Assembly: GCA_008632985.1 (NCBI GenBank)
Contig: QPGO01000034.1
Coordinates: 1 to 64,000, forward strand
Direction of reading: 5' to 3'
Source: Psammoneis japonica
Taxonomy: Eukaryota
Length of the DNA: 64,000 nt
Shown: positions 1,089 through 57,862 of the stretch, one piece after another
Numbering within the stretch: position 1 is the stretch's first letter
Layout: the number at the start of each line of letters is the position of its first letter
Position numbers and translations under genes: made by a program
The notes under the pieces: model-generated
Database searches by the model: none
What the model was told of the DNA's origin: nothing
The model's input: the letters and a program-made list of their open reading frames with translations, nothing else

Positions 1089-1139
1089 TGATGACACCAC
1101 GACGACAGACGAATGGCAATTGACGAAAACACAGTGTGA

Positions 1140-6588: not shown

Positions 6589-7242
6589 AGTGAGACTGAA
6601 GCTTCGCCAAACTTTAATTCAACTCTCTGAGAGCTTTAAAATGAAACGTTGCGGCGGTGGTGGAGCTATTGTGGTTCACTCCCTTTTGGCGCTGGCCTTG
6701 TGTCATTTATCTGAAGCGTGTTGATCTCGTCGACGGCGGCGCTCTTCTTGAGGTCTTCTTGGTTGATGCTGTGGCCCGTTGGCATCACCTTTCATCAGTC
6801 GGCGAAACAATGCTCGGAAAACTTTTCATTCATGAAAATATTATGTTTAGACTAAAAATCGAAGATCTATATCACTTTTTGAACTTAAAGACATCTTATA
6901 TCTTTAATATAAATTATTCAATGAAAGCCGTTGAGATCATTAACTGTTATATGTGCCTTAATAAGGTAAAAAGTGAACATCCGTTAAATATTATATTAGA
7001 TACAAGGTTCATAATAAAAATTTGAAAGGCGAGCTTCACAAGCTGTCGTCACAACATCATCCTTTCCTCTTCGCTTCTGCCGCCCATGCCATCCCTTCTG
7101 TCTCATCATTCTTGCTTGGATCGATAGTGGGTTATGGGTTAGGTGTTACCGTGTAGGTGTCATCCCGCCCCGATGCCGATTGCTAATCACCCTAAATAGT
7201 CTCTGAGGGTTGTTAGAACATCGAACATCAGTCCTGCTTTTG

Positions 7243-10013: not shown

Positions 10014-10247
10014 AGTCACGACTCAACGTCATTCTGGTCGCATCTCACGACTACAACCCAGACTCAGATTTTCTCTTCGAAATAATTAGCTCATCACAAA
10101 ATCGATTCAAACAGAAGCAACGACATTCGTCATAATTTCTAGACAACGACTTTCAACAAGCGTCTGTTTACCTCTGTCGCTATTCATATTGCTGCCAACC
10201 TCCGAGGTCTTGTCCATCCTACTCAGCTGCAGGACTGCATCTCGACT
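10014..10247 (+). repeat. Copia 5' LTR (AGTC...GACT)
   Basis: Direct repeat of 17022-17255 with 6 substitutions. Followed by a PBS candidate, (t)ggttgcagagacc. Confidence 0.95.
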
Positions 10248-10409
10248 GGTTGCAGAGACCAATTTACGCGTTGACGAGAGCTCCTGACCGAGTCATCGTC
10301 ACGGACGCTTTCGGTTTTTGATTTTGAAGCAAACCCGGGAAATGGCTGAGTCTCTCTCGCTTCTCTCGTCTTCACTCTAACAAGAACCTCCCATGCTGCA
10401 CTCTCCATC

Positions 10410-13400: not shown

Positions 13401-16400
13401 GCCATCCAACTGAACACCATGGCATGCTACGTCCCTGGAGCCCGTCAGCGCCTGCTGTCGCCTCAACGCCTCTTCAACGAAGAGAAGGGGATACGTGGGA
13501 AGCATGAGGGCGATGAAACCACTTTCCGTTTACACATTGACGGGACAGGCAAGTTGGTCGTGCCATGTCATCCATCAAGCCACTTGCCTGTTGCGTCGAT
13601 GACCAAGGGCGTGTCTGCCGCTCCTCAAGTGAACCTTCAGGTCCTTGACGAGGAGAATCAAAACCTCACGGCAGGCCAAAAGCTTCTTCTCGAAATGCAC
13701 GCCCGTTTTGGCCATTTGAACTTTGGTCGCGTCCAAGCACTTCTCCGTGCAGTTCCGTTCCTTTCGAACCGTTTCAAGTCCACAGCGAAGTGTGACCACC
13801 CAAGATGCGAGGCATGCGAACATGCTAAAGGTCACAGACGCTCTCTTGGATCTACTCACAAGTCGACAGTCCCTGAACGCGACGGGGCCCTTCGAGCTGA
13901 CCATCTTCGACCGGGTCAGGCTGTCAGCGTTGATCATTTTGAGTCGCGCCTTTTAGGCCGCACCTTCGACTCTTATGGCAAAGCCACGTCCAAGCAATTC
14001 AAGGGCGGTTGCATCTTTGTCGACCACGCCTCTGGCTATGTCCAGGTCGAGCACCAACTGGGTTTCTCCGCTGTTGAGACGACATGCGTGAAGCAAGCGT
14101 TTGAGAAACATGCTTTGGACCACGGGGTCATCGTCCAAGAATTTCTTACCGACAGTGGCGCTTTCAAGGCCAACGCTTTTGTACAACACATGCGAGAACA
14201 TGAACAACGTCTCCGTTTTTGTGGAACCAACGCCCATCATCAGAACGGCGTCGCAGAGCGGGGCATCCGCAGCATCTCCAACATGGCGAGAGCGATGTTG
14301 CTTCATGCATCAATCCACTGGAAGGGGGGAATTGACAGCTCCCTATGGCCCATGGCAGTTTCTTGTGCCACGCACATCTACAATGTCACCCCAAATTCCA
14401 AAGGACATTGCCCAGCGGACATTTTCACCGGTTCGACAGTGCCAAGACATCGGTTGCGCGACATTCACACATGGGGATGTCCAGCGTACGTACTTGACCC
14501 GACCCTCGCTTCCGGGAAGAAGCTCCCGCGTTGGGAGCCTCGCACTCGTCGCGCTTTGTTCGTGGGACTCAGTGCCATCCATTCCAGTGAGGTTCCTTTG
14601 GTCCTCAATCTTCAAACTGGAAGTGTTGCACCTTAGCATCATGTGGTCTTTGACAATCTCTTCACTGCCGTGCCATCAATCGAGAGGGAGACGGATCCAC
14701 CTGATCACTGGGAACACTCATGCCTCAACCAATCGACATGCATCCCTCTGGAGAAGGATCAGGCAGTTCATTTACACGATGAGTGGCTTGCCCCTCCAGA
14801 GCGTCAACGCAGAGAACGAGAACCAGCCAGAGCAACACGCATTCGCGGGCATTTTGAGCCCACTCCATCGATTGCTGTGCCGGATTCACCCACTTCTCGC
14901 GACGACGTTGCCGATCGAGTCGCACCTGCGACTCAGCAGCCAACGCCACCAGTCCCACCTGCGACTCAAACTCCTACAGACTCTACGGACTCTACGCCAA
15001 TTCAGCCACCTGAACCTCAAGACAGTGACGGACTTCCGCCACCCGAAGCGCCGACGGAACCAACAGCTCCTCCCCCAGTCGAGACACCTCCTGTGACGAA
15101 TCCAGAGGGAGTGCCAGGGCTGCAACGGTCTTCACGGTCAACCAAGGGACAGCTCAACTCTGCCAAGTTTGTAGATGAGGTCTGCTTCAGCTCCGTCGAG
15201 GAAATGCCGCTGCCGATCGGACACGAGGCTCAACTGGCATATCTGGCGACTCTCGAGACGGATTTGGACAGTGGCACCATCAATGTCGGCGATCCACGAG
15301 CCTACGCAGCTAGCAAGAAAACCAAGGACCCTGACATGCCTTCGTCACACAATGCTCTGAAAGGTCCGGACTCCGACGAATGGATTGAGGTGATGAAAAT
15401 TGAAGTCAACGCACTCATGCATCGTCGAGCCTGGAAAGCAGTCGAGCGTCAGCCGCATGTGAATGTACTTCCAGGCACATGGGCACTAAAGCTCAAGAGA
15501 CTCCCAGATGGAACCCCTCTCAAGCATGAGGCCCGACACTGCGTCCGCGGTGATTTGCAGAAAGAAGGAGTCGACTGCTTCGAAACCTGCGCGCCGGTTG
15601 TGCAATGGTCCAGTGTCCGACTCATGCTCACTACGGTGTTAAAGGAGGGATGGACTGCACGACAGGTGGACTGTGCCACAGCCTTTTGCCAAGCTGATGT
15701 CGCCGAGGAAGTTCACACAACACCGCCGAAGGGATTTGCGCCAAGGTCGGGACTCAATGTGGTTCTCAAACTTTTGAAAGGACTGCACGGCCTAAAACAG
15801 TCTCCCAAGGGCTTCTACGAGAAGTTACGAGCTGGTTTAACCGAGCGCGGATGGGTGCCTTCAGCCATAGATCCCTGTTTGTATTTCAAAGAGGGCATGA
15901 TGTGTGTGGTGCATGTCGACGACACCGTTTTTGCTGGAGCTTCAGCTGAAGCTCTAGAAGCCGAAATTCGCAAGTTAGGAGTCTCCGACGACGAACATCG
16001 CCACGCATTTGAACTTAGAGACGAAGGAGAAGTCGGTGACTTTCTCGGCATCAAGATCGAAAAGCTCTCCGAGGGTCGATTTCTACTCACTCAACCCGGT
16101 CTAATTGACAAGGTCCTGCGCACCGCACAGATGCAGGATTGCAATGGAGCATCTACTCCAGCTCTACCTGCGGCTGTTGGTGCCGACACGGACGGCCTGC
16201 CTTTTGATGAACCCTGCGATTGTCGCTCAGTTGTTGGAATGTTGATGCACTTGGCAGCGAACAGCCGGCCAGACATTGCACATGCCACACATCAAGCAGC
16301 TCGATTCTCGTTTGCGCCCCGAGCATCCCACGCTGCTGCAGTGAAGCGGATGCTCCGACACCTCAAAGCAACTGCTGCTGAAGGTCTCATTCTCAAGCCT

Positions 16401-17000
16401 GCGCAAGATCATCGAGTTGATTGTTGCGTCGATTCTGACTTCGCGGGGTTGTTTGGTGTGGAAGATGGTCAAGACCCAGTTTCTGTCAAGTCCAGGACTG
16501 GACACCTTGTCTGCTACGCCGGCTGCCCGCTTGTCTGGGTGTCCAAGCTACAGACTCTTGTGGCATTGTCGACTGTGGAAGCGGAGTGTGTCGCACTTTC
16601 TCAAGCTGTGCGCGATCTCATCCCCATTCGTGAAGTTCTCAAGGAGCTCAACCACCACGCACTCGGAAAGTCTGGCCGCCAAAACCCAATCACGACTCAC
16701 TCCAAGGCTTTTGAGCTCGCAACCCAAGGCACCGATGACTCGCCTGTAGAGCAGAATGTCCCACCTGCGTCCGTTGTGCACGAAGACAACTCCGCGTGCC
16801 TCAAGTTCGCACGTGTGCCCAAGTTGTCTCCGCGAACCAAACACATCGGCATCCCGCACCACTGGTTTAGGACCAAAGTCGAACAATTGGAGATCGACAT
16901 CCAACCTGTCAGCACTCTAGAGCAACTAGCCGATCAGTTCACGAAGGGACTACGGACCGATGCGTTCCGTACGGCTAGAAAGGCTCTTATGGGCTGGTAA
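10410..17000 (+). pseudogene. Copia gag-pol polyprotein, one frame with two in-frame stops (TGA 10695-10697, TAG 14634-14636) and many Tyr->His/Cys changes
   Basis: Protease VMDAGA; integrase HARFGH..CEAC, VSVDHFES, LTDSG and QNGVAERGIR; RT LHGLKQSP and VVHVDD; RNase H VDSDFAG, EAECVALS, HEDN and LADQFTKGL. Confidence 0.93.
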
Positions 17001-17021
17001 GCTCTCTCGGTTGAGAGGGAG

Positions 17022-17255
17022 AGTCACGACTCAACGTCATTCTGGTCGCATCTCACGACTGCAACCCAGACTCAGATTTTCTCTTCGAAATAATTAGCTC
17101 ATCACAAAATCGATTCAAACAGAAGCAACGACATTCGTCATAATTTCTAGACAACGACTTTCAACAAGCGTCTGTTTACCTCTGTCGCTATTCACATTGC
17201 TACCAACCTCCGAGGTCTTATCCATCCTACTCAGCTGTAGGACTGTATCTCGACT
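17022..17255 (+). repeat. Copia 3' LTR
   Basis: Preceded by the PPT and followed by the TSD GATCC. Confidence 0.95.
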
Positions 17256-17536
17256 GATCCCCACGTGCGTCGATCTTCAACACATGGTGACGTAGCACAG
17301 CCAATCAAAAGGAGTTTACGAAGAACACCATCGACAGGCATCAAAGACATCCGCCGATGCGAGGCACACGATGTGAGAAAGAACAACAACAACCATCACC
17401 CATCACTGCTCTAGACTACTACAGTACCGGTACTTCTTGCCATCAAGGGACCCACATCAAGCGAGGGCCAAAAAACAACCATCGTCTACAACTTGTACAT
17501 TTCCAATTATTTTTTGTGTTGTTATCGTTCTTCATA

Positions 17537-20249: not shown

Positions 20250-20697
20250 GCAGGGTTGGGTCTTTTGTTGTTTGAGTGACTCTGCGTGAAGTTCACGGTA
20301 GAGTCGGTGTTAGTAGCGGAGCCCTGCTCTAGAGTGTACTTTTAGAATCATCACTGCATGAAAGTCTTCACTCAATTCATGTCCGTAGGGCTTTTATGAG
20401 CTCGGAGCTCCCTCTAGCCTCTAGCTAGTAGAGAGAGAGACCTTACCAGACGGCACGGTACCACTGTATCGTGAGTGACGAGCTATGGTTCAGTACGCAA
20501 CCGCCGTAGAATTCCACGAAGGGAACGTTCAACGTGCACCGCACTCACACACTTTCAACTTGCGGCCTAATAAGAGCGAGAACTTCGCAGTCCAGTTGTT
20601 GGGTGTTCGTACGTATTGTGTCTCTTCGAAAGTACAATTACTACCGGTGCAGCGGTCCTTGGGGCATTGGAAGTGAGCAGTATACGGCAAGAGAGAA

Positions 20698-22126
20698 ATG
20701 ACAGACCTTACCGTCTATGCAGAGGCGCTGATTGCAACAGTGGCAAGAGCGTTTTACGACGATGATGCCATTTGTTTGATTGATGTTTTATTGAGAGACA
20801 AATTTCTCCGAGACGATGACATGGCACCTCGGTTGTCGCTTCCGGCCAAACAGTTGCGAAGGACGCTCCAATTCTTACAGGAAGAGCACTTGGTGAAGTT
20901 CGAGCTGGTGGATGACTTGAGTTCAGGTGGAAGTCAGGCTACCAAGTTTTGGTACATTGATTATAATCATGCCGTCAACACCATACGATTGCGCATTCAT
21001 CTGTTGCAGAGAAAACTTGAGAAGGATGAAATGGCTGCGCGGTCAAGCAGCTTTTACCTTTGCCCTGGATACAAAGAAAAGCGATGCAATGGACGATACA
21101 CTGAGACCGAAGCGCAGCAGGTAGTGGATCTAGAGACGGGCTTATTTCTGTGTCAGGAGTGTGTCAATGACTACGCCAACAACCCAAGTCCGCCATCAAA
21201 GGAAACGTATACGCTGCGCTTGGTGGATAACACAGCCGCCCTCAAGCTTGCTGTAGATAACATGCGTCGAGTTAAGGTACAGCTTTCGACGAAAATGGTT
21301 GGGAACCACCAGCTTCGAGCCGGTATCTTTGACCTGCTGCAGAAGGTTAGGGTCAAAGGAAAAGGACCTCTTACGTCCAACCTTCCTTCAGAAAACTTTC
21401 AATTGGGTATCGGCTCAAAGCGATTGGCGGGGACGGGACGAACTGCAGGCAATCTGGCAAAGAAATTGGCACAGCAGGGCGTCGTTTCCAGATCGGAATC
21501 GGGCTCAATTTTGGGCGGCGCAAAACGCACAGAAGAGGGGAGCGGCCCGTTGTTTTTGAAGAATGCAATGGGACAGCAAATTCAACTCAAAGTGGAAAAA
21601 GGCGGTGGTGCAAGGGCAAACCTTCTGGCGACCAACCGACGGCGCCGAAGAAAGCTTATGGACGCTGCGGCCACAAGAGCCGGAATCCACGTGCCTCTTT
21701 ACTGGAAAATGAGAGAACAGAAAAAGCGAGAAAGAGAGGAGAAAGACGGAAAAACCGGTGCAAAGAAGGCACGTACAGAATTCGCAACTCTTGACTTTTT
21801 AAAGAATAACATCGGGCGCAAGGATGACTACGAAGAAAGACACGACCTACAAAAGCAAAATATTCAAGAAGAGGTAGTTTGCGACGACTCAGACGAAGAG
21901 ACCGATGCTCTCGTTTTGATTGATGATGTAGACATCTTGCTATCAAAGACAGAGGAAGAGCGCCGAACGATTTTCCAGGCACAGTACAAGCTAGAAGTTG
22001 AGAGGACAGTTGGCATTGCTGCAACCGGAGCTCTACGAGACTACGGAGAACTCCAATCCTCCAACTCTTGTTGCGGACGATGGAGTCGACGAAGATTTCA
22101 TTAATATCCCCTGGGAAGATGCATAG
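20698..22126 (+). CDS. TFA1: Transcription initiation factor IIE alpha subunit
   Basis: N-terminal winged helix (VARAFYDD..ICLIDVLLR..FWYIDYNHAVNTIRLRI) and Zn ribbon (CPG..C....FLCQEC). The acidic C-terminus DFINIPWEDA* (stop at 22126) is reached via a probable frameshift near 22030. Confidence 0.9.
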
Positions 22127-25100
22127 CTGCTATGAATTCAATGGTAGTGATTGTTCGCAATGCAATCCGAACGACGCCTGTGCATTCTGGAACAATGCGC
22201 CATCGTGTCTTCCCCTGGCTCTTGATTGGCCAAGGTGGCCAGTTTGAGAATTTCTTCAACCAGGCGGCTTTGCCCTACTCCTTGGCCTGGTGCAGGTGCA
22301 TTCCAAAAGAAGCTTGGCTCAGTCCATGAAAGCAACTGCCGCCTCGTCTCCGACATGCTTCCGGTGAGACTCGTCTTCTTCAACACGCCCCAAACACTCT
22401 CACACGAAAGACAAGGCGTCTGTAACAGTACTTACGATTCGGTCGCACAGTATGTGCATGGTGATAGTAATCAGATATGTAGTTCCCTTTAGGTTTACCT
22501 ATGTGATGTTGAAGAAAGCCATCTGTAGCTGTCGCTGATGTTGACAACTGTGCGATACATGTGCACCGTTTTTGTCCATAGGATTGCTTTCGTTTTCACA
22601 ACTACGAAACAGTCATGCTTGTGGATGAATCTAGAGTCCCATCTCCAGATCAGGCCAGATGCTGTGTTTAAATTGACCAGGTATGGAGAAACTCTAGCTA
22701 GCTTTGTGTCCATGTTAGAGGCCAAAATCACGTCAACAGAAGGGAACACAGCAAAATACAATGAAGGATGGATGAGGAGGGATTGTGTGACCTTTGGTGA
22801 CATGCACCACAATGACAACGTTTCACATAAATGCCACTTTTGTTCTTCAAAGGCCAGAGCAAATGACACTCTACTGCTCTCCAGCAGAAGCAGCTGCCTG
22901 GTGCTGCAGCACTCTAGAGCAGAGAGCCGATGAAACTCTACTCCAGCAGCCAAGTGAGTGCTGCAGCTTAAGAGTTGTGCATGAGAAAACAGCTTCAGAA
23001 CTGCTGAAGTGCCGTTTCTTTCCTTTCCATTGCAAAACAGTTTGAATTCCCACCACTGGCCTGCAGCCATGATTGCCAGGCAAGCATGAACCAGACCAGA
23101 AAGTTGGGGTTGTGTGAGTGCAGCAGTCAATGACCATTTCGTGTCCGTTGATCACCTTTGCCTGAGCACTTCCTGCATCCTCTCTTGCACGAGTCCTGGT
23201 TTTGACAAATTGATCCTGCAGTTGGACTCATTTGAGGAAAGTGACAATGCAACAAATTTTGTCAACAATGTGCCAATGCTGGCAGGTTGCATCATTGACA
23301 TTGAGTTCTTCAAGAAAAGATTGCTGGGTGGTGCTTCTCGCTGGCATCCCCATCATCCTGCATGCAATCCTCCTGGTGCAGCTTTTCAAGACCCCTTGTC
23401 AAACCCCAGCGAGTGTTTTAGATTTGAGGACAATGGTCATGATGAGAAGTCACTCCATTTCACAGTGGTGAGTGCAACTTTTGCTGTGGGTTTCTGCTTC
23501 CTTGTCATTTTGTGGAAGTTTGCCACTCTTCAGCAGCAGAATCAGATTCAACTCATCTGGCTTTCATGCAATTACACAACAGTCCTTGCTGAGCAGCAAA
23601 GATTGGCAAGCAACCTTCTTGAATCAAAGCCAGTTGACTCCAATGTTTCAAAGTCCCAATTTCATGCATCGTGTGTGGTTTCTGGCCCCTTTTGTCTCAG
23701 CTCTGGACACTGGCCTGCCAATTTGGAGGTCGTCACTTGGGTGTCATTTCCAACACCAACATTGCTGCTCATGTTGCTGGCAAGTCTGTTTTTGTGAACT
23801 GGTTCCTTGACTTTTCTTTCATTGTGTCCACAGCAAGGATGGGCCAAAACAGCAAAAACAACATTGCAGTTCTTGTCCTCATCTTTTCCAGCTTTTGGCC
23901 GCACCTCAAGTTGGTGTCTGGCCTGTGCTGTTCTTTCTGCCACCAACACAACTTGGTGTGTCAAAATGGGAGACAATGACTTTGCTTTGGCTTGATGTTC
24001 TCTCAAAGTTGTCAGTCGTTGACATGTTCTTTGCTGTCCTGCCAGCCATTGCAGTGCTCGACTTGTCATTTGTGCTGGCAGGCCCAACAAAAGGTTTTCA
24101 AACAAAGGCAATCCTTTTCATGTGAATCAGTGGTGGCACCACAGGGTCATTGGAGCTGGACAATGCAGGTGAAATGCTGAAAATGGTGTGCACAGGGATG
24201 GGATCCATCAAGAGTGGTGAGAGTGCAGAGATTCCCAATGGGGCTGCTCTTGTTGCAGCAACTCTGGAGCCATGCACATCCCACAACTGATGTGCACCAC
24301 CAACATGATTCCAAATCCATCACGTCACTTCTGCTTTCACCAGCAGTGTTTGAGGGAAGCATGGTGGTGACATGATTGCAGCCACCCTTGTGAGCAACTT
24401 GCAACAGCATGCTGCATTGGCTGTGTGTGGGGATGAGTGAGAAGAGAGAAGAGTTTTGGGGAGAGTGAAAAGAACAAGAGCAACAATTCACAATGATGAC
24501 AACAACAACAATGACAAACATGACTTGACTGTGGTGGGGACAATCCACTTTCCACTCTAGTGTGGTGGCTTTGACAAGGATGAGGCCCAACACCCAACAG
24601 GCACACTCCTGATGAGCATGCGGCAGGGCCTGGCCAGCTGGATGAGGCCATTGGCAGGTGTTTTTCACCTGTGGGCAGAGCATTTGAAAATGAGAAAGAA
24701 GGATGGGACTTCCCAGAGAATTGTGCACATTTTCCTGTGCAGAATTAGAGAGACCCATCAACCACACATGACTGCCAGCAGACCATTTTCAAATCCTTTT
24801 TTGAATGCCATGCATCCGGGTTTGATTCTGTTTCAGCACCATGTGGAAGCAACAGCAGCAAGGCAAACTGAAAAAGACTCAACTCTTGATTTCAACTTGC
24901 CTTTGGAGCAAAGTCATTTTCATCAATGATCAATGAGATGCGATTGCTCAACAGCAATGCAGCTGCTGCAAGAGTCTTCTGGGGTGGGATCCAGCTGAAG
25001 CTGTTGGGTGCCTTGGGCAAGACACATCATCACAATCAGCACATCAAAACCATGCAGTGTGCTCTCATGCACAAACAATTTGTCCTTGTTGTGGAGTCAA

Positions 25101-25584
25101 GTTCATGCAGTGACTTTCATTTTGCTGGCATCCATGGCTTGCAGGCAATGCCATGGAAATTGCACCAAAATTCAGATTGTTGGTCCTGCAATGTGAGACC
25201 ATGCAAAAGAGCCAAGTGTTTGCAAGTTTGAGAGTGAGAACAAGAGAGAAACAGAGACATTGCACAAAATGCAAAAGTGGCTCACCTTCAATTCATTCTC
25301 AGCCCTCCCCTTCCACACTTCATTTTGCAACTCCCACTGTTGTCATTTTAACACAAACAAACAAGTGCAAAGAAAATGCACAGCACTTGAAATGAGAAGC
25401 ATGCCGCTTCAAATGCTCTTTTCAAATGCTCCATTTTTTCCATTGTGGCAAAGTGCGGAGAGTCTTTCAACTCACCTCCTGGTTCTTGTTGAGTTTTTTT
25501 CAACTCGCCTCATGAACCCATGCTGAAGCACACAAGCCTCTGGCACAGGCAAACTGAGAATTTGCCCCCATTTGAAAGACACGA

Positions 25585-26080
25585 CCTGCCCACAAATCTG
25601 CCACCATCCTGAACTTTCATGAACAGTCTAATTCCACCACCACCCTAAAAATTCAGGACTGCAGCGGCCAGCAGCAACCACCATGGCTTAAGTTCACAAC
25701 TGCAATTCTGTCATGTCACGCAACACTGTGATGGTGTCCAACCACCTGAATTTGCCACCATCCTAAAAATTTGCCACTGGCTTAAATTCATGACTTGCAC
25801 AAATCCGCCACCATTCTAAAAATTCACAACTGACCCTGATTCACAACTGGCATAAATTCGCCACCATCCTGCACAATTTACGACTGGCCTGAATTCACAA
25901 CTGGTCCAACTCCGCCACCTGTCATGTGGCAACAGGACCCTAAATTCATGACTGGCCCAAATCCACCGCCATCCTAAAAAGTTCATGACTGGCCTGAATT
26001 CACAACTGTCCCAACTTCACCACCATCATAAAAAGCTCATGACTGGCCTGAACTCACAACTGCCCAAACTCTGCCACCTG
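25585..26080 (+). repeat. Degenerate array of short repeats (aaattcacaactggc / aattcgccaccatcct), possibly subterminal repeats of a DNA transposon
   Basis: Two short motifs alternate many times over about 500 bp. Confidence 0.75.
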
Positions 26081-27439
26081 TCACTGTGATGGAGGTGGAT
26101 GAGAAGAGGAAGAAAGGACAGAAGCAAGCTTTGGAGATGCAACACAACATTTGCAAGCATTGCTGCAACACAGACATTGTGCCACCAGGTGCATTTGGCG
26201 AAATCCCAATGAGTGTTGTGGGATGTGTTGGAGGTGGCCGTGTGGAGCACTTGACAAATCTGAACCTTTTTGAAACTGCAATGGTGGCACATGCAACAAC
26301 AAAGCATGCCTTGAAAGACAGCAGCATTGACAATGCCGGCAATGCTGCAATGTTGGTGGGTGACTTGGAGCCAGAGGAGGATGGTGCCATGTGTGTTGGA
26401 AATTCAAACAGAACAAAAACTGATGTCTTGTTTCAAATGCAAAGTCAGCATTTGACAGCTCAAAGTGCAAAAATCAGGATCTTGTTTGTGCCTCATTGAC
26501 AGGTGTCATGGATGTGGTGCACTTCTTTTTTGACAGCAGCACTGCAAGAAACTCAGAATCAGAATCATGTGCAGCAGTCACGGCAGCATCTTGATGCAGC
26601 AAGGCTCTTCCAATCACTTGGCAATGTCAATGATGCAAAAAAGGAGATGCAGCTGCATCTCAAAAAGTCTCAAGTTAAGGGCAACAAGAACAAATTGCTG
26701 GATGTGAGTGCCATTGATGTGTGTGCATGTTGTTGTTGTTTTGTCTTCATCAAAATGTTGTTTCTCCTTTTTCTGCCTGTCACGTCTGAAAGGACATGAA
26801 GAGGATCAAAATGCTGATCAAGCAAGGGAGTCATCAAAGAGGATGGTGCAAGGAATGGCAAGTTTTGCCATTGTTGTTTTGTCATCATTGAAATGTTGCT
26901 CACTCCTTTTGCCATCATCTGAAAGGATGCACAAGAGAATCCAGTGGCTGATCAAGCAAGGGGGTCACCAAAGGATGCAGGTCAGGATCCGGGCTCACAA
27001 TTGGTCCGCTGTGGCTTTTGTGATTGCCCCAGGCCTGATGAGCCTGTTGGGACAAGAGATGAGGCAAAACACCATGATTGCAATTGTGGGTTTGGTTTGT
27101 GGTCATCAAACAAGTGCTGGAACTTTGAAAAGTGTCATTGTTGCTTGCACAGTGTTGGGTGCCATGCATGCCTTGACAAGTGCAACATGACATTGTTGAC
27201 TTGCAGCCACCAAGATTGTTGCGGCAATGTGCAACTTCATTTTTGCATCAGAGACTTGCATGATTCACAGGAAGTCCAGATGCATGGACAATGGATGGCA
27301 ATGCACATCACATTAGAAAGCAAGGAGTGACACCAGGAATGGGAACTCTTCCATGAGTGTTTGCATTTGCAGCTGTCCCGCCAGCCCCTGTCAAATTCAC
27401 TCTGCTGCAGGCATTGCTCAAGAAGTGTTTGGACTTGTG

Positions 27440-28330
27440 GGACAATCAATGACAATGACATTGTCTGCAGAATCAGAGCTTTTTTGTGGTGCTGCTTTTG
27501 TTTCCATGGCCCTGGAGAGCAGATCCAAATCCGCACTCAGACATCCAACCAATGCTGCAATTGCGCACCAAAATCCCAATGTGTTTTGCTCAAGTGGGCA
27601 TTGCTCCAGCAATGCTCAGAACAGTGGGACAACAAATGGTGGTGACAACATCTGCAGAACAAGCACTTTCCAATGGTGTCACTTTTCTTTCCATGCCTTG
27701 AGTGCATCCAATTCTGCTTTGAGACATCCAGATGGACCCACATTTGCGGACAACAAATGGCGGTGACAACATCTGCAGAACAAGCATTTTCCAATGGTGT
27801 TGCTCACATTTCCATGCCTGAAGCACATCCAATTCTGCTTTGAGATCTCCAGATGGCCCCGCATTTGCACGCCAAAATCCTGATGCGATTTGCTTAAGTG
27901 GGCATTGCTTTGACAATGCTTGGAATTGTGGGACAACAAATGGCAACAACAACATCTGCAGAATGAGAGCTTTTCAATGGTGTTGCTTGTGTTTCCATGC
28001 CTGCAGCAGATTCAATGCTGCTTTTGAAATCTCCAGATGGCCCCGCATTTGTGCGCCACACAATCCCAGTGCTTTCCAACAGTGTTGCTTTTGTTTTCCA
28101 CACCCAAAGCACATCCAACTCTGCTTTGAGATCTCCACATGGCCCCGCATTTGCGCGCCAAAATCCCAGTGCAATTTGCTTAAGTGGGTGTTGCTTCAGC
28201 AACACTTGGAATTACGGGGCAAAAAATGGCAATGACAACATCTGCAGAATGGGAGCTTTTCAAAGATGTTGCTTGCATTTCCACACCCCATGGATCCAAT
28301 TCTGTTTTGGGGTCTCCAAATGACAACACA
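27440..28330 (-). pseudogene. Decayed tandem-repeat coding sequence, LRR-like
   Basis: tgacaacatctgcagaa and gagatctccagatggccccgcatttg each recur 4-5 times. The minus strand gives pieces such as LKQIALGFWRANAGPSGDLKAELDVL..GMET...LEKLPFCRC. Confidence 0.5.
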
Positions 28331-28799
28331 CTTGTGCACCAAAACCCTCTGGCTGGCCAGCTGGCAGCAGGCATTTTGCTGGCACACCTGCAACATCATG
28401 TCGCGGCTCCCCAGGGAAGCAACACTCTGTGGCACAGGCATTGCTGACACATGCCTGCAACAGCAGGTCTCAGATGGTGACTGCTCCAGATGTTGCAAAG
28501 CCTTGATCTGCGGACACACTGATGACATTGCAATCAAGGGACTTTGGTGCATGATCCCTTGTTTTAATCTGCTGACACAGGGTGCCATTCAGATGCAATT
28601 GCAGGCTTGCAGACGGGCACGCAAACATTCACTCACCCTCACATGCATTGCCCTCACAAAGGTGTGTTGTTGCATTTGTCAAGAAATGCATTGCACGGGT
28701 TTGAGCAAACATGCGATCTGCGCCAATGCCAAGCTTCTTTGCACTTTACATTGTCAGCAGCGGGAACAGCCAGCTGCTTGGGCCATTTGCACATCCAAG

Positions 28800-31200
28800 T
28801 TCAATTGATTCATGGGCACTGCTGTTGAGGTTGTCATTTTCATTTTCCAGTCCAGTTGGCAATTCACAGCCCAATGTCAGAAGAGGTTCATGTCATGTCC
28901 TCACATGCAAAACCAACACCCACTGAACATGAAGTCAGCACATGATGTGAAGACACATCCAAGTCTCTGCAAATGCAAATCACAAATGCAGTTGTCCCAC
29001 TGGCTCCACTGATGCAGAGTCCAATCTTGCTCATGAGCTGATGTGGGGATGCATGTCACCAACATCATGCCACATGGACCACACTGAGACAGCATCTTAA
29101 TGGCATGTGTGTGATGATGCCGGTCATCCCAGATTGAAGATGGATTGCTGCATCACACAGGCCACGTGAAGAGCTTTTGTGCCCCATCATCTGCACTGAC
29201 TGGTCCAGACCCAAGGCGGCAACATTGGCAGACAGAGACATCAGCAAAGGAGCACATGTTGAGCTCCAGTTGTTTGGGCATGCCAAGGTGGTTCCATGAC
29301 ACCTTGTGCCGCATTCCATGTGTTGTTCACATTTTCTCCTTCTTGAGACAGTGGCACATTTTGTCATGGAACATTGGGAAGTGTGGTGCCCACATTGCCA
29401 TTGCTTCTGGCCTGATCAAGCGGCAGAGGAATCTCTCATCCAGATGCATCACAAGAAACCTGCATCCCTTCTCCTGCTCATTCTCAGAACCACCAAAATC
29501 CATTGAATCGGCAAGCTTTTTGCAAGAAAGAGCCATTGACATTTTGGACAGCATGCACATCAAACGCTCTTCTGCAAAATGGCAGAAGCTTCCATTGTGA
29601 TTCTGACCCCTGTTTTGAGGAACTCAGACATCCTTGTCCAACTCAAAATTTTGCAGCAAAGCCTGAAGTTTGTCCTTTGTCAGCCTTGTTGTCTCCTGTT
29701 TGGCTCTGTCGTTGCATTGCAATGCATCAATTGTTTTTTGGAGTTAGATGACCAGACATTGCTCCTTCTTCATCTAAGTCCAGCAAGGCTGAATCCAGCT
29801 CAGCACACACAATTGCCAGACCAAAGCAATTGCGTGCTTTTGCAAGGTGCTGGATGGTGAGCAAAAGTGGGAATGTGATGGACCATGTTGCCAATGAGCT
29901 CCAATTTTTTGCATTGCATTCAGCACACTCTTGCCCATGCCAAGCTGCATCTGATGACTTTGAAGATGCAAAACCAGATCCTTGCTTCTGCACCTGCTTT
30001 GCACTCATGAGCTCTTTGACCTTAGACGACATTGTGGCCTTTTTCTTTCATGGCAAGCTCCACCCAGAAATTTTGTGCCTCCTCCCTGTGACAGGATTGC
30101 ACAAAAAAAGCTTGGTTGATTGTTTCTTTGCAATCGCACTGCATCTTCAAGCCTCTGCTCTCTGCTTCTTGTTTGCAGAAAGGCTGGTGCAAAACCTGTG
30201 GAAAAATCTGGCGCGGGCTCCTTTTCATGAAATGATGGACACGACTGAATGCAAATGACCTCAACGTGCTTCTCATTCCTGAACAACAGCTGCGTTTGCA
30301 TCTTGTGTTGCACATTGGAAACCATCTGCCTCAACACGTCATCATCAGAAAGAACTCAAATGATGTCATCAGTGTGACATCAGGGTTCCTTCTCATGCCA
30401 TCAAATGTCATGCAGTGGCCCTGGGTGCTCTGGAGCAGAGAGTGTGCAGCAGAGAGTGGCTGTCTGCCTTTAGAGGGCACTGCTTGCCAAACATGCTGCC
30501 AGTGCACCCATCATCATTGCAGTGCTGTTGCTCGTGTGCATTGCATTGTGAGTGAGGGGAAAATGTGGCTGCACTCTCTCTCTGCCACCGGTGCGGCACA
30601 GAGATGCCATGCAGAGCATGCAGCGAGAGAGTCAGTTGGAGCATTGGCGCTGCCCACTTTCACCTTGGCACCTTTCACCTGCATGATGCAACTCATCCAG
30701 CTCACCCCAGCTGCCTCTGTTGCCTCCCCTCTTGGACACCAACACCTTGCAATCGACGTCACCACCCCCAAAAACCTCCCCCATCACCTGCTCCTGGCTT
30801 GCCTGCCCCAACGCAGAGTCCCCCACCGGCCCCTCCCTGGACTGCTGAATCCTCCTTCCAACACCCAGCCACCCATGCTGCATGCACTCACGCCCAACTG
30901 TCACCATCTGCCATTCTCCCTGCAGCTGTTGCCGCTTGGCAGAACATGTCCAGCCACTGCGAACTTCGGCCTCACCCAGCCACCACACTTCCACTCCATC
31001 ACAATGGGGCCTTCAAAGCCTGAGCCTGGCAATTGCCAGATCACTCGCTGACCAACTGACCCGATGCTCCACCAAACTACAATCCCAACTCTCCAACCCC
31101 AATCCGAAACCCATCCCTTTTCCTGCCTGCATGACTCAGTCAGTGCAGTGCGCAGGCAGCACTGCAGTTCCACCCTTGCTCCGCGTCTGTCCCACCCCCG
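28800..31200 (-). pseudogene. Decayed long coding sequence, possibly a MULE-type transposase
   Basis: Fragment ICDLH..RLGCVFTSCADFMFSGCWFCM loosely resembles the MULE CDFE...GCxFH segment. Weak resemblance only. Confidence 0.2.
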
Positions 31201-31418: not shown

Positions 31419-31931
31419 ATGAGTTATCGCGAAGATGAAGAACTGGAGGGAGAAGAAGAAGAGGCCGTCTCCGTCCCTCAACAGGTTGCCGAGTTGGCTC
31501 AGGCTAGTGTGCCCGATTCAATGAAAGGCATCCGTGCATGCAAGCGTTGCGGTATCCTGAAGACATTAGATCAATTCATCGTTGAAGGGTGTGAGAATTG
31601 TCCCTTTCTCGAAATGGTGCGAAAACTGCTGTTTGTTGCTACCTCGATTTATCTTGTGCGCCTGTGTTCATTGCCGTGTCTGCCTATTACGTTGTGTTAA
31701 CGTGTTGCAGGTGGACAACCCCGAGCGATCCAACATGTGCACTACCGCATTTTTTGAGGGCGGGCCGCTATTATGGATCCCCGTGAGAGCTGGGCTGCAA
31801 AGTGGATTCGTACGGACAACTATCTTCCTGGCGTGTATGCAATATCTGTCACTGGTCAGTTCGACAGGGAAATTGAAGAAGATTTAGAGAATCGTGGCAT
31901 TCGTTGGCGGTGTCGACCAGCGCCAGCCTAA
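31419..31931 (+). CDS. SPT4: Transcription elongation factor SPT4; exons 31419-31616 and 31711-31931
   Basis: RACKRCGILKTLDQF..EGCENCPFL, CTTAFFEG and IMDPRESWAAKWIRTDNYLPGVYAISVTG. One-base frameshift near 31761. Confidence 0.93.
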
Positions 31932-34519: not shown

Positions 34520-37500
34520 GCCTTGCTGATTCGTTGCTTGCCAAAAAAGAAGCACCACCTTGACCTTCACTGTGTTTGTCACACAGAACGATGACACTGC
34601 CCTTGTTGGAACTCAACAACACAAGGCTTCAAGGATCAATGCGACGTGTCCGATGTGGCAACCAGTGCGATGAGAAATGAAGTCTGCTTTGAGCAGTGCA
34701 ATTCAGCACTGACACCCTGAGAAACCCCTGTGAGATGACAGAACCTCGGCAATGTTTTGGGCAAAGTGCCTTGTGGTTTTGGCTGGCTGCAGTGTTGACA
34801 AACAGCAAAATGACTTGATTGCTTCACCACAAGAAAGTGATTGTGCTGATGCTGTTTGTTGGAACGTCAGGACATTTTTGAGAAAAAGCTGGCAGCAGGC
34901 CTTTTGTGGGCAACAGGTTGAGAAAGGTGGCAGCTTGCCGAGCAGTGCAACAAATCATTTGATCTCAGCAGCAATGTGTTGTTGATTCTTGATGCCAGCC
35001 AGGTGAAAAAAGCAAATGCTCCCCCAGCAGCTGCACCTCCCAGTGGCAGCAGCAAGCGGTCTGCCTCTTTTTCGGGGTTTTTCTCTGGTTGCTGGTGGTT
35101 GGGTGCCAAGTGCCAAAAAACAAGAGGCAGCCTCTTGTGCTCCCCTTGGTGCCTGTGCAGACCAAGCTGTTCTTTCATCCTGTTTTTGCACCTTGATGAA
35201 GTGCTTCTTTTGTGCAAACCAGCAATGTGCCAAGGTCTTTGCTGCTGCTGCTGCTGCTGCTGCTTTTGACTGAGGCATTTTGCCAAGAGAGCAAAGGCTG
35301 TGCTGTGTGGGGCTGGGCAAGCAGCACTGAGACAAAAAATCTCTGCTGCACCTCATCTGCTGCCAGGGAGGCACAGCACTCTGTGCCACAGCTGCTGCCA
35401 GGTGGCAGCTCTTGATGCTTAAAAAAAGAGGGAGCCAGCCCCACACACACACACACAAATATGATGCTCCTTGGGCCACCCGTGCCAAGTGTGGCAACCA
35501 CTGGTGTTTGTGACATCTCAAAGACCCAGGTGCAGATGGAGTTGCAAAGGTTTCACAAAAGCAGCATCATTCATGGCAAAGCACACAGCAAATGCATCAA
35601 AGCACTTTTTTCTCATGGTGTTGCCCCCACACTGGAGAGCTTTTTGTTCTGCCTTGTTTGGCTGTGCTGTGTGGCAAAGAAGAAGCATTGCTGAGCAGAA
35701 ATCCAAAAAGCAAAAAACAAAAGGTGGGGCTCACTTTGCTTCTTGAGCACACATGAAAAATTGGATCCCAAAGAACAAACAACCAGCCCCAGCAGTGAGA
35801 CATGCACCAGTTTGCCCCCAGCCAGACTGCTGCAGAGTTGACAACACTGCCTGTGTGGCTGCATGCCACAAAACATGTCCAGACACAATGCATTTTTGGC
35901 AGAGAGGACACCATGCTTGGATGTAGGTTGCAAATGATGTTGACTGCAATGCATGTCCAAATGTGGCAAACAAAGATTGTTTGCTCATCCTGTTGGAGTG
36001 AGAAGTGTCTCTGCTTCTGGGGCTCAGACTTGTGAAATCACAAGTGTCCTGCAAAATGATGAAGCACATTGTGATTGGTGTCCTCATGGTCAACAATTGC
36101 CCTGGAATGGTGAGCCAGCCCCTTTTGTTGGTTCTCTGCTCTTTCCCTTGGCTTTGCCAATCTTGTCTTTTTTCAAGGTGTCCAGAACATTCTTGTTCTC
36201 ATTGTTCTTGTTCCTTTTTTTGCTGGTCACACCAAATCCATTGGCCAGATTGTTTTCAGCACTGTTTCTGCCTGAATCTGTCTTGTCAAGATCCTGGGTC
36301 ATGGATTCATGCTGGCTGGATCTGCCACCTGCTGTTGGTGGCTTTGCAGCTTCCAGACATGTGTGCTCTTTGTGTTCCAATGCACTCTTGCAACAATGAC
36401 TCAGGTTGTCAACTGGGGCACTCTTGTTGCCCATCATGCTCATGATCTGATTTAGAGTCTCAAAATGATTGGCTGCAACCCTTGGCTGCAATGGCTTGGT
36501 AAAGCAGTCAGCAAGCATGGCATTGGTTGGGCAATGCCCAGCTGCCAAATTGCCCTTCAGAACATGGTTGGCCACAAAAAATGTGGTGACTTGCTTGGTC
36601 CTCTTGCTGCTCAACCATTCTTTGCCAACAAAATGGAGCTCTCATTGTCCTGGCATGTTCTCCTTGATCTTGAATCCTTGTGCTTCCACAAAGTTTCTGG
36701 TGGTCCAGTTTGCTGTGCACGACCCTGACAGGCTCACTTTCAGCAGAGCTGTGCATGTTGCAACTTCTGCTTGGGCAAAGTGCTGCTGATGGCACCCCCC
36801 TCCAGCATTGCTGCGAGTGTCCAGTGTGACCTCTCATGTTGGGCTGTGCTGCACATGCTGAGGCATCAATCTGCCGTCCAACAATCAATTTTGTTCAGGA
36901 ACAAGATGCCTGGTGAGATGACACAAATCCTCTGCCTCAAATGCCTGATGATTTTGTGGAAAATCTGTTCATGTGGAGTGTGAGTGGCAGACCCTTTGTA
37001 AACTGTGGAAGGTGCTTTCTGACTCCCACGCAAGTTTCTTCCGGCTGTCAGACCCAGAGTCACAGATCTGGGTGAATGAGAACAAGAATCTTTTTGCAGT
37101 CTGCAGGTTGGCCTGGTCCTCTGTGACAGGAATGTCATCTTTGCCACAGTCAAGTGGAAAGTTGCCTGGTTGTCATGTTGCCCAGTGTTCCCAGGCTTTC
37201 CTCCTTGCTCATGCCAAACAAACAATTTGCTGCAGGAGCAGGGCTCTCCCTGGACTCTCCCCATCCATTCCTTCCAGCAGTGAGCCAAGGAGTTTGTTTG
37301 TGCATTGGAACATGCTCACTTTGACCCTCCCCTTTGCACTGCAGTTGATGGGCTGGTCAGGCCAAAATGTTCTTGGATGCCTTCTCAGGCAGTGGCAAGC
37401 CCAAAGTGTTTTGCGCATCCCAGCTTGAGGTCTCCAATCAGCTTGATGACTGCATTGTCAGGATCCATCATGCACAATGGCCTTGGGTCATCCACATGCC

Positions 37501-40500
37501 ACAGGATGAAGCATTGTTTCCCACTGTTGATTTTGTTTGCCACACACGTGGCCCTGGCTTTTTCTTCTTTCATGCTGACAATGCTCCTGTCACCATGCTG
37601 CGCAGTGCTTTCTGGAGCTTTGCATGTGGCACCTCTTTTCTGTTCTCACAGACCACACATCTTGTTCCGGCACAGGCTGCATGCCTGGTGCACTCATCAC
37701 ATTTCTTGTCAATGTCCTTTTTGATGTCAGCATTGCCAGCTTGGCTCTTGTTGTCTGGCTTGTCATTGTGGGGGTCATGTTGGCACAGGCTGTCACCTGA
37801 TCCCTGGCATCATCCTTGATTTGGTCCTGTGCATCTGCTGCATCCTGCTTTGTTCCTGTGCTTGTGGCTGCATTGTGCCCCACTCCCACTGTTCTTGCCA
37901 GTGGGGTTCTTGGTCCACTCCTGTGGTTTGAGAGTCATTGTTGGCTGTGCCGGTGTCAATTGCTCTCACATTGAGGCCATCTTGGGAGGTGTCATCCATG
38001 TTCATGTCCAGGGGGGTCTTGTCATCCAAGTGAAGGTGTTCAGCGGGAGTGTTTTGGGTTTCTGCTTGCTCAATGTCTGAGCAAGTTGCAAGCAAAAATG
38101 CCATCACCACAGTGCCAGAGTCTGCAACAGGAGGTCATGGTGGTCACTGTCATCATTGTCAAGAGGTTTTGGAGCTCACATCCTCCTCCCAATTGTTTTG
38201 AGACTTTGCACCCTTGTTGATTGACCCCCACTCTGATCCTAGAAGCTGTTCCCTTTTGGCACCTTTTTGTGCCTGCAATGTGGTGCACCTGGTCAGTTGT
38301 GACATCAGACAATGGGTGGTGGTGCTGTCTAAGCATCATCCTGTTGCAAAGCTTGCAAAGCCACAGAGTGATGGCACCAATCACCAACGGCACTGCTGGC
38401 TGCACTTTTGTCATGGTCCTTGTGTGTCTGTGTGCCTTGCCCCAATTTCATCATGGACAGTGCTTGTTGCAGTCAACCTCAAGACCAGTTGCAACCACTG
38501 ATGGACTGTGCTGACTGGAGATGCCTTCCTTTGCCACAAACCAGTTCAGCCAGAACATGGCTCTCTGCACTTTTTTGATGACCAGCTGGTGTGAGAAATT
38601 GTCTCTTGCCAAAAAATGAGCACCTTGACCTTTGCTGTGTTTGACAGAACCACGGCAATGTTTTGGGCAAAGTGCCTTGTGGTTTTGGCCAGCGGCAGTC
38701 TTGACAAACAGCAACATGACTTTTCAGTGCTTTCCAACACAAGACTGTGATTGTGTTGATGCTGTTTGTTGGAATGTCAGGACAGCATTGACAAAAAGCT
38801 GGTGGCAGGCCTTGTGGAGAACAACAGGTTGAGAAAGGTGGCAGCTTGCTGAGCAGTGCAACAAATCATTTGATCTCAGCAGCAATGTGTTGTTGATTCT
38901 TGATGCCAGCCAGGTGAAAGAAGCAAGTGCCCCCCCCCTCCCCTCAGCGGCTGCACCTCCCAGTGACAGCAGTGGATGGTCCACCCATTTTGCAAGGTTT
39001 TTCTCTGGTTGCTGGTGGTTGGGTGCCAAGTGCCAAAAAACAAGAGGTGGCCTCTTGTGATCCCCTTTGGCACCTGTGCAGACCAGCTGTTCTTTTGTCC
39101 CTTTTTGCACCTTGACAAAGTGCTCTTTTGCAGACCAGCACTGTCAAGGTCTTTGCTGCTGCTGCTTTTGGCTGAGGCATTTTGTCAAGAGCAAAGGTTG
39201 TGCTGTGGGGGCTGGGCAAGCAGCACTGAGACAAAAAACATCTGCTGTCGTGCCTCATCTGCTGCCAGGGAGGCACTGCACTCTGTGCCACAGCTGCTGC
39301 CAGGCCGCCAGGCAGCTCCTTGGGCCACCCAGCACACTTGTTGTTGAGCCATTTTGTTGACCACAGGTGCTGGCACTGCCAAGAGTGGCAACCACCAGCA
39401 AGTGAAATCTCAAAGACCCAGGTGCAGATGGAGCTGCAAAGGTTTCAAAGAAAAGCAGCACCATGGCACAATGCACAGCAAATGCATCAAAGCACTCTTT
39501 TCTCATGGTGTTGCCTCCACCCAGCCACAGAACTTCTTGTTGTGACTTGTTGGGCTGTGCTGTGTGGCAAAGTAGAAGCATTGCCAGGCAGAAAACAAAT
39601 GATGGGGGCTTGCTCTGCTTCTTGAGCATGGGTGGAAAATTGGATGACAAAAAAACAGCCAGCCCAGGAGTGAGGCATGCACCATTTTGCCCAGCCAGAC
39701 TGCTGCACAGTCAACAATGCTGCCTGTGTGGCTGCTCACCACAAAACCTGTCCAGATGCAATGCATCTGTGGCACAGAGGGCCTCATGCTTGGATGCTGG
39801 TTGGAAACAATGTTGACCGTGCAATGCATGTCCAAATGTGGCAAACAAAGATTGTTCGCTCATCCTGTTGGAGCAACTCCTCTGCTTCTGGGGCTTGGAT
39901 TTGTAAAATCACAAGTGTCCCATAAAAAGATGCAGAACACATTGCAATGCATGGGTGTCAGGGTCAACAATGATTGCCCCAAAATGAGCCAGCCTCCTTT
40001 GTTGGTTCTTTGCTCTTTCCCTTTGCCCATCTTGTCTTTCTTCCTGGCATCCGGAACACTTTTGTTCTCGTTGTTCTTTTTTTTCTTGGTGGGCACAACT
40101 CCATGGGGGGCACACCATCTTCAGCACTGTTTCCTCCTGAGTCTGCAGCAACATGACTTTTCAGTGCTTTCCAACACAAGACTGTGATTGTGTTGTGATG
40201 CTGTTTGTTGGAATGTCAGGACAGCATTGACAAAAAGCTGGTGGCAGGCCTTTTGTGGGCAACAGGTTGAGAAAGGTGGCAGCTTGCCAAGCAGTGCAAC
40301 AAATCATTTGATCTCAGCAGCAATGTGTTGTTGATTCTTGATGCCAGCCAGGTGAAAAAAGCAAATGCTCCCCCCAGCAGCTGCACCTCCCAGTGGCAGC
40401 AGCAAGCGGTCTGCCTCTTTTTTGGGGTTTTTCTCTGGTTGCTGGTGGTTGGGTGCCAAGTGCCAAAAAACAAGAGGCAGCCTCTTGTGCTCCCCTTGGT

Positions 40501-46500: not shown

Positions 46501-46730
46501 TCTGTTCCCAACTGCAGCTCCATCGTTCGCAACATTTTAAAGCCGCTTCCTTCTGAACAATCCTGCTGCGTTCATTGTTTTGCAGCTTCCTCTCTCTGCG
46601 GCAGGCGCACGTGCTTCCCCCTCATTGTGTGGAGGCAGGTGAGGCAGCACGGTGCAGCGCAGAGATGTCCAGATGGCCTTTCACAGAGGACCACCCGGGC
46701 AAGTGAGACACCAAAGTTTCATTTGTGAGT
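34520..46730 (-). mobile_element. Cluster of heavily decayed Ty1/copia elements of a second family (LTR TGTTGG...CCAACA)
   Basis: RNase H SSKRTK..GHCPTNAMLADCFTKPLQ (about 36.5 kb, again about 41.9 kb), RT GKQCFILWHVDD (about 37.5 kb, again about 42.8 kb), protease LNNQPTCNAF, and Zn knuckle KKGHCASDCP (about 45.1 kb). LTR-like units at about 35992-36380, 39866-40176, 41332-41723 and 46291-46511. Confidence 0.85.
34840..41640. repeat. Three copies of a ~1.4-kb unit (about 34840-36260, 38745-40140 and 40185-41600)
   Basis: Each begins tgattgtg..gatgctgtttgttggaa.gtcaggac. Copies 1 and 3 are near-identical (they give matching ORF translations); copy 2 is more diverged. Confidence 0.88.
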
Positions 46731-49591: not shown

Positions 49592-49882
49592 TGCCAAGTG
49601 GCGCCAAGTAATAGTATAAAGTAGCGTTGTAAAGTTGACTGTTGCTAATATTGTGAGAAGAAATGAAAGAGATTCGGCTACTCCGAAATCTCGTAGAATT
49701 AATACTAAGAAACCGCGTAGAAATATAAAGAAACAATCTTTCGAGAGGCATCGAGATGTATCGAGAAAGGAGAAGAGGTTTCTAGAAAGTGTCATCGTTG
49801 ACATCCTTTTGACACTTTTGACACCAGGTTGACACCCACGAATGAATATACGAATGAATATAGATGACCGTGATATTCGGCA
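49592..49882 (-). repeat. Gypsy 3' LTR
   Basis: Direct repeat of 54201-54491, adjacent to the PPT. Confidence 0.95.
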
Positions 49883-49903
49883 CTCGCTTCCCCAATTGAG
49901 ACG

Positions 49904-57860: not shown

Positions 57861-57862
57861 TT

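Follow-up and report, generated by a model that had tools for sequence, protein, structure and literature searches.

Repeat-directed mutagenesis has, to our knowledge, long been known only as a C-to-T process, in the form of fungal repeat-induced point mutation (RIP), APOBEC activity and CpG decay. The first 64 kb of contig QPGO01000034.1 (C35) of the diatom Psammoneis japonica, here termed the window, contains a block at 22,560-31,200 in which the base steps TA and CG have both nearly vanished in favor of CA and TG. This block is almost certainly the end state of two successive mutation processes on repeated DNA. In the genome searched with it (91.4 Mb in 597 contigs) there is a real, genome-wide hypermutation of repeats, reverse in polarity to the familiar kind, which is followed by ordinary CpG decay. 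A process of this kind, directed at A:T pairs, has been reported once before, in a 2026 preprint that deals with two viral inserts of an unrelated alga, Bigelowiella natans (Mettrop et al., bioRxiv 10.64898/2026.01.13.699255). A literature search, with most subscription papers outside its reach, found no report of a TA-erasing process in diatoms.

Composition was measured across the window as observed/expected ratios of TA, CG and CA+TG, along with GC content. A sequence-only reading of the window had proposed that TA and CG were collapsed into CA/TG throughout 22,560-31,200, and the block is indeed real: it holds 43 TA and 100 CG steps, with ratios of 0.07 for TA, 0.20 for CG and 1.84 for CA+TG at a GC content of 0.48. 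The right edge, at ~31,200, is sharp and lies where that reading had placed it, whereas the left edge moves inward to ~22,970, with 14 of the 43 TA steps sitting within 22,560-22,970. The core thus delimited (22,970-31,200) carries 29 TA and 94 CG, against 555 and 473 expected from its own base composition. Two further blocks that had been named as similar are so, namely those at 34.5-46.8 kb (TA 0.03, CG 0.09, CA+TG 1.88, GC 0.50) and 57.9-59.6 kb (TA 0.03, CG 0.24, CA+TG 1.80, GC 0.50). In the four intervening stretches TA stands at 0.49-0.67, CG at 0.93-1.10 and CA+TG at 1.14-1.19, so that TA in the blocks (0.03-0.07) is far below that of host DNA, and the host genes are spared. Two more blocks, absent from the earlier list, lie at 1.0-2.0 kb (depleted, with TA 0.05 and CG 0.41) and at 55-58 kb (intermediate, with TA 0.15-0.20 and CG 0.64-0.87). 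The 22,560-31,200 block is also present on the allelic contig C202 at ~99% identity, and contigs from a public sequencing run span it with few differing letters per kb; as this run is possibly the source sample, it does not amount to a sample-independent confirmation.

Direction, order and timing of TA and CG loss

Comparison of seven pieces of the domain with less-mutated homologues reveals that 89 of 111 TA and 145 of 189 CG steps have become CA/TG, that only 2 TA are retained and that ~5 of 655 CA/TG steps read TA. The idea that both steps converge on a single CA/TG sink is thereby upheld. The process can be followed at an earlier stage in the young Gypsy and Copia elements of the window, each of which has many genomic copies. 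For Gypsy the count was restricted to sites where two real copies agree, and the counts over copies are observations rather than independent events. Of 2895 TA observations in 14 further young copies of this element, 1025 have gone to CA/TG and 5 to some other step, while 139 of 4912 CG observations changed; transversions number 28 in 60,853. At 145 of the 220 TA sites that changed, some copies read CA and others TG, which establishes TA as the starting state. In the frame of the window Gypsy element, up to 41 of 49 Tyr codons read His or Cys in other copies, and the stops in 15 young Gypsy copies number 0-1. Within the young Gypsy copies TA loss peaks mid-element (0.5-0.6) and is lowest in or near the long terminal repeats (LTRs; 0.15-0.2), and Copia is without such a gradient.

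TA loss precedes CG loss and is far faster. The per-copy ratio of TA to CG rates is 9-78 in young Gypsy copies and 4-5 in two older ones, a drop that reflects saturation of TA; CpG decay to TG/CA is ~10-20 times slower than TA loss. Among 337 repeat-biased tiles 67 combine TA<0.2 with CG of at least 0.6, and none combines CG<0.4 with TA of at least 0.35. Likewise, 90 tiles drawn from 18 spread-out stretches comprise 25 end-state, 15 TA-only, 3 intermediate and 47 normal tiles, with none that is CG-poor at normal TA; TA is depleted in 40 of the 90 (~40%). The two processes postulated in the sequence-only reading are thus both confirmed, but they are not equal in speed, a point that it had missed. 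Since TA is lost first and far faster, missing TA points to recent targeting and missing CG to age. The same reading also put the blocks forward as a putative sequence-only map of long-term heterochromatin.

Simulations agree with this history. When only CpG decay is simulated, at 11 or 100 times background, TA stays at 0.5-0.8 and GC falls to 0.43-0.45; with TpA decay as the sole process GC reaches 0.59. Both processes together at the measured rates give TA of 0.02-0.03, CG of 0.22-0.27, CA/TG of 1.8 and GC of 0.50-0.52, and so reproduce the observed end state (TA ~0.03, CG ~0.2, CA/TG ~1.8). The balanced GC content that had been anticipated from the dinucleotides is likewise found, at 0.483-0.484 in end-state tiles versus 0.471-0.483 in unaffected ones, while either process by itself would drift.

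The changes arise after insertion, as is evident from pairs of LTRs belonging to the same element. Both LTRs were available from 13 of 16 Gypsy and 13 of 15 Copia loci, and the resulting 26 pairs differ by 154 TA-class changes, 37 CA/TG flips, 24 CG-class changes, 13 other transitions and 5 transversions; some target-site duplications also differ between their two copies. Alleles diverge as well: between C35 and C202, 7 of 48 TA and 20 of 106 CG sites differ inside the domain, versus 17 of 663 TA and 16 of 940 CG sites in host DNA. Two intergenic clusters of allelic differences, at 6,800-7,100 and 20,250-20,600, are rich in transversions, unlike the repeat signature.

TA loss can also reach neighboring DNA that is apparently single-copy, and can do so on just one of the two alleles. 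At 894-990, for which a genome search gave no match except its own allele, 11 of 13 TA are gone from the C202 allele and none from the window allele. A 1-kb inverted-repeat element, with a target duplication of 9 bp, is inserted just left of this stretch on C202 alone, and on the far side of the insertion 0 of 33 TA are lost (versus 11/13; p ~6e-9). This element (window 877-893; C202:91,860-92,880) has 19-bp inverted ends and a 180-bp internal repeat and is confined to one allele; a further copy of it was seen at another locus (L027). The targets observed here are accordingly LTR elements, an inverted-repeat element, a gene copy and flanking DNA, and are mostly repeats.

Candidate chemistry of TA loss and its alternatives

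The sequence context of the hits is narrow. A-to-G change per site is 0.32 in TAT, 0.27 in TAC, 0.13 in TAG and 0.10 in TAA, and at most 0.014 in all other A contexts; single-copy changes outside TA retain the preference for a 3' pyrimidine (87/1806 vs 36/2393). In agreement with this ranking, TA steps that survive in depleted blocks lie in contexts slow on both strands in 38 of 58 cases, versus 150 of 810 in host DNA. Change of CG to TG/CA is seen in all four 5' contexts. Hits cluster over a few hundred bases. On the scale of nucleosomes, the spacing of hits in Gypsy is low at 40-80 bp and raised at 100-180 bp, a possible periodicity that is not clear in Copia. The rate at a TA site did not depend on its distance to CG.

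After insertion of an element, then, A:T pairs in TpA are turned into G:C, yielding TA-to-TG on one strand and TA-to-CA on the other, as nearly pure transitions. Either strand is struck independently, in patches of a few hundred bases and in the chromosome rather than during retrotransposition, and a slower decay of CpG to TG/CA follows. The TpA half could most readily be ascribed to a host adenine deaminase that acts on chromosomal DNA and converts A to inosine, which is copied as G; such an enzyme might be recruited by silenced chromatin or by a guide RNA. The CpG half would stem from deamination of 5-methylcytosine. Both halves would mark silenced chromatin, and mobile elements would be disabled through missense changes, chiefly at Tyr codons (to His or Cys), and not through stops. 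We judge it fairly likely that the two-process history, with this chemistry and chromatin role, is the best explanation overall; a defensive function is probable, and for the TpA half we lean slightly toward adenine deamination as the chemistry. This preference derives from the purity of the transitions together with the rule of a 5' T and 3' pyrimidine. An engineered TadA derivative prefers YAY, where Y is a pyrimidine (10.1101/2025.05.14.653640), and hence a deaminase can have such a 3' taste.

For the CG half, diatom transposons are CG-methylated by DNMT5 (PMC9998398), and many C5-methyltransferase loci are present in this genome, both of which point to decay of 5-methylcytosine. Extra C5-methyltransferase copies, some of them broken, lie on C297 and C301 (L132-L134, L138, L144), C28 (L141, L145) and C10 (L137, L143, L146); those on C297 and C301 are depleted of TA with CG kept, and the C28 copy is in the end state. 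The family thus seems to have been amplified and to be itself under attack.

Deaminase candidates in the genome comprise an ADAT2-like gene on C26, a TadA-like gene on C38, ADAT1 on C40 and a second gene of the ADAR/ADAT1 fold on C79 (344,200-345,900; L148, L172). The last of these has intact CHAE, PCG and CSDK motifs and a conserved basic N-terminal segment. Its family, at 42-66% identity in the best 120 relatives, with diatoms of several genera as the named members, is separate from ADAT1 and better conserved than ADAT1 across diatoms; a literature search found no paper on it. Elsewhere on C79 (87,300-88,800, minus strand; L122:313-1785) a deaminase domain lies in frame with a 2-oxoglutarate dioxygenase domain, and a look-alike search with this fusion protein (C79:88.5 kb) gave only dioxygenases, all under 0.8. 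More tentatively, and as somewhat less than an even prospect, this lineage might possess a natural chromosomal adenine base editor, guided by silencing chromatin or small RNA, which would rewrite TAY/TAR (R, a purine) over ~40% of the genome and spread from new insertions. It would represent an ancient defense of the stramenopile-alveolate-rhizarian (SAR) assemblage shared with Bigelowiella, with the C79 deaminase or ADAT2/3 as candidate enzyme.

Several observations weigh against this interpretation in one or another of its parts. The candidate deaminases are ordinary or diatom-wide, so finding them in the genome does not argue for a role, and the broad distribution of the C79 family in particular speaks against a lineage-specific function. 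Strand coordination is absent among the hits (same-type neighbors 0.57 vs a null of 0.55 +/- 0.02, with both directions mixed within each copy), which tells against a processive single-strand deaminase. In sequence data, A-to-G change and T-to-C change on the opposite strand look alike. Co-localization of TA and CG loss is mixed (p=0.001 in Gypsy, p=0.09 in Copia), and the site observations are non-independent because the copies share descent. As to spreading, a 72-bp tandem adjoins the 894-990 allele case, and in the 31 of 46 LTR flanks that were averaged, the other 15 being located in depleted DNA and left out, TA is 0.50-0.61 within 600 bp versus 0.60-0.72 beyond; with average spreading so weak, the allele case counts as one example. 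Finally, tiles with TA<0.15 number 0 of 373 in 54 diatom-like metagenome loci, versus 53 of 126 here, although those loci are short, gene-centered and biased against repeats and so do not show absence of the process in those species.

Among the alternatives, the one that survives best, unlikely as we consider it, is error-prone repair of T:G mismatches or lesions in methylated repeats, in which a low-fidelity polymerase would put G opposite T after T and TA loss would be a by-product of methylation. Polymerase eta has an A-to-G habit at TA/AA, and targeting to CpG-decaying DNA would need no extra step. Repair would also accommodate the patches of a few hundred bases, the correlation of TA and CG loads across copies (rho 0.72-0.77) and, in Gypsy, locally, and the rank of AAC and AAT as the next most mutable A contexts (0.07). 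However, just 5 of 1030 TA changes are anything but transitions, TAY lies ~20 times above AAY and the strand coordination expected within a repair tract is not found. Moreover, TA hits are ~7 times as numerous as CG hits, such that deamination events seem too few to act as the driver, and in B. natans the regions of TA hypermutation are reported to show hardly any GC-to-AT change (Mettrop et al.).

A modified thymine at TpA (hydroxymethyl- or formyl-uracil), which would mark silenced repeats, mispair with G and produce T-to-C in R-T-A, is in our view quite doubtful. It benefits from the fact that the strand bearing the lesion is indistinguishable by sequence, TAY being RTA on the other strand, and thymine oxidation occurs at repeats in dinoflagellates. 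Against it, a Tet_JBP search of the genome, made without a positive control, was blank, and near-complete erasure at a few percent overall divergence demands a very mutagenic lesion. Deamination or miscopying of N6-methyladenine (6mA) in repeats is very improbable. It would yield A-to-G transitions only, and ApT is contained in TAT, but AAT, CAT and GAT are cold (0.005-0.014) and TAC is hot (0.27), and an MT-A70 search of the genome, again without a positive control, was blank. Nor does the known eukaryotic distribution of 6mA fit the context, since the mark occupies ApT close to active genes and shows no enrichment in transposons, and P. tricornutum has only 5-methylcytosine (10.1101/2024.10.28.620566).

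TA loss as an arithmetic side effect of CpG decay, a result of selection against TA or a sequencing artefact can practically be dismissed: TA is mildly under-represented everywhere (0.5-0.67 in host DNA), but it persists under simulated CpG decay alone and in CpG-poor blocks of two other diatom-like contigs (0.36 and 0.59), vanishes here before CG, and differs between paired LTRs and between alleles, while the public-run contigs reproduce the block (unless assembly and run share one systematic error). A comparably negligible place goes to editing of RNA or cDNA during retrotransposition, which could draw on the preference of A-to-I editors for a 5' U (as stated by Mettrop et al.), but is contradicted by the presence of both directions within each copy, by the differences between LTRs of one copy and in some target-site duplications, and by the hits on the inverted-repeat element, the gene copy and the single-copy flank; as a sole cause it is ruled out by the LTR-pair and allele tests.

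Anatomy of the domain and its surroundings

The domain is a mosaic, with non-allelic matches covering 7137 of the 8641 bases of 22,560-31,200. In a search against Pfam, no family passed cut-off in any of 121 stop-to-stop frames taken from these and the other depleted blocks (50 of the frames in the core domain), and most pieces are therefore identifiable only through less-mutated copies. A pattern search for the reverse transcriptase YxDD motif gave no match. No terminal inverted repeat linking the two ends of the domain was found, which favors a mosaic over a single element. One sequencing run (X2) has spliced joints at the neighboring genes and zero cover over 22.7-31.1 kb, which is not evidence of silence. 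The features of the window are as follows, strand being given where assigned.

894-990: apparently single-copy AT-rich stretch, 13 TA kept in the window
1,001-2,300: small depleted block (ratios as given for 1-2 kb)
10,014-17,256, plus strand: Copia LTR retrotransposon, missing from the allelic contig; 6 sites, all TA-class, distinguish its two LTRs
20,677-22,104, plus strand: host gene for the TFIIE alpha subunit, spared
22,500-22,970: transition zone between the TFIIE-alpha gene region and the core, TA and CG partly depleted by their positions
22,970-31,200: core end-state domain of dead repeats and gene-copy fragments, defined by composition and non-allelic matches
22,994-24,147, plus strand: dead partial gene copy, the homologue on C224 being a 926-codon open frame (locus L090)
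24,227-25,582: dispersed-repeat fragments, with less-mutated copies on C80, C4, C116, C118 and C78
25,754-26,088: 54-bp tandem array of 6 copies, which keeps several surviving TA
27,407-28,348: degenerate array of a ~183-bp unit (locus L110), with TA-rich copies on C187
28,580-30,410: dispersed repeat, class not assigned, with copies on C74, C51, C26 and C44
30,821-31,254: end of a dispersed element, with ~35 copies among the matches listed, which makes the sharp right edge
31,420-31,931, plus strand: spared host gene on the right-hand side of the domain; contains an intron (~31,615-31,710, GT..AG joint)
34,800-46,700: second, deeper end-state domain with internal duplications at spacings of ~3.9, 5.3 and 13.1 kb
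49,592-54,491, minus strand: Ty3/Gypsy LTR retrotransposon at an early stage, the reference copy; its two LTRs differ at 10 sites, all TA-class
55,000-57,900: intermediate state, most TA gone and most CG retained
57,863-59,731: third depleted block, which repeats 44,734-46,625 at 85% identity

The named best matches of the TFIIE-alpha gene are diatoms, at 59-67% identity, which assigns the genome to this group, and the host gene to the right of the domain is presumably Spt4-like. In the dead gene copy 24 of 28 TA and 59 of 71 CG of the C224 homologue are CA/TG; this homologue has a PqiA domain further downstream, beyond the part matched. In the ~183-bp-unit array 42 of 51 homologue TA are CA/TG in the window, and the TA-rich C187 copies of the unit adjoin a DDE_Tnp_4 transposase fragment, which we take to be of the PIF/Harbinger type. 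The element end that makes the right edge terminates in GC-rich repeats and then TAC, and lies directly upstream of a same-orientation host-gene frame in the window and in five copies (L007, L011, L018, L019, L020), the adjacent frames including a methyltransferase, an NTPase, a dioxygenase and a desaturase. This element may prefer promoters or may supply one. Attempts at identification of the 41.9-46.8 kb repeat gave no family, and in the Copia element a single in-frame stop (14,634-14,636) divides its two long frames.

Relation to known systems and significance

In the rhizarian B. natans the accessible parts of Mettrop et al. describe a TpA signature, measured in mutation-accumulation lines on two viral inserts, along with 124 clusters. 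The rate is raised ~1000-fold per generation and intermittently between lines, and TpA is only halved in the large insert; ADAT2 was proposed as the enzyme and an extension to transposons suggested, and those parts contain no mention of diatoms, CpG, LTR or trinucleotide context. Both systems have TpA-to-TpG/CpA transitions on both strands that are local and chromosomal, host genes that are spared, long-term clusters poor in TpA and rich in CpA/TpG, and an adenine deaminase as the proposed enzyme. The features of the viral case recur here as transition purity (1025 of 1030 TA changes), confinement to foreign or repeated DNA, and action on DNA already integrated, as attested by the LTR pairs and alleles. 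One allele-specific case and patchy hits may bear on the question of intermittent activity. The ADAT2-like gene on C26 would be expected in any eukaryote. In contrast to the viral inserts, the present case concerns a diatom with transposons, a gene copy and a flank as targets, near-complete erasure in ~40% of the tiles sampled, a preference for TAY, CpG decay as a slower sequel and spreading that is specific to one allele.

Fungal RIP, which is premeiotic and dependent on RID, changes CpA to TpA, raises AT content and makes stops. It resembles the present process in being repeat-focused, in causing dinucleotide-specific transitions on both strands and in its ability to leak into flanks; furthermore, diatom DNMT4 is related to RID (PMC9998398), and a chromodomain-plus-DNMT locus of DNMT4-like domain architecture is present in this genome. 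However, the polarity is opposite. The C-to-T change at CpA and the TpA enrichment of RIP have no counterpart among the CA/TG steps here, TpA is removed, GC remains level in place of an AT-rich end state, and the damage is mostly missense; RIP is triggered by duplication, and the targets here are mostly repeats, yet an apparently single-copy flank was struck. Decay of methylated CpG, with its CG-to-TG/CA transitions in repeats, accounts for the CG half as the slower and later process, but cannot remove TA. APOBEC/ADAR enzymes and TadA-derived base editors share the deaminase-like context of a 5' T and 3' pyrimidine, whereas the changes in this genome have no strand bias and no tie to reverse transcription, and are natural rather than engineered; the one-strand bias and LTRs identical at insertion that attend APOBEC/ADAR action are not seen.

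The P. japonica genome presents the reverse-polarity process at saturation on transposons and gene copies, together with a time series, a context rule and an example of spreading at the level of alleles. LTR dating, repeat annotation and substitution models break down here, while the TA and CG ratios taken jointly form a clock with two hands that reads how long targeting of a region has lasted. The genome offers a tractable system for finding the enzyme, and a natural DNA adenine deaminase, if true, would be new biochemistry and useful for base editing.

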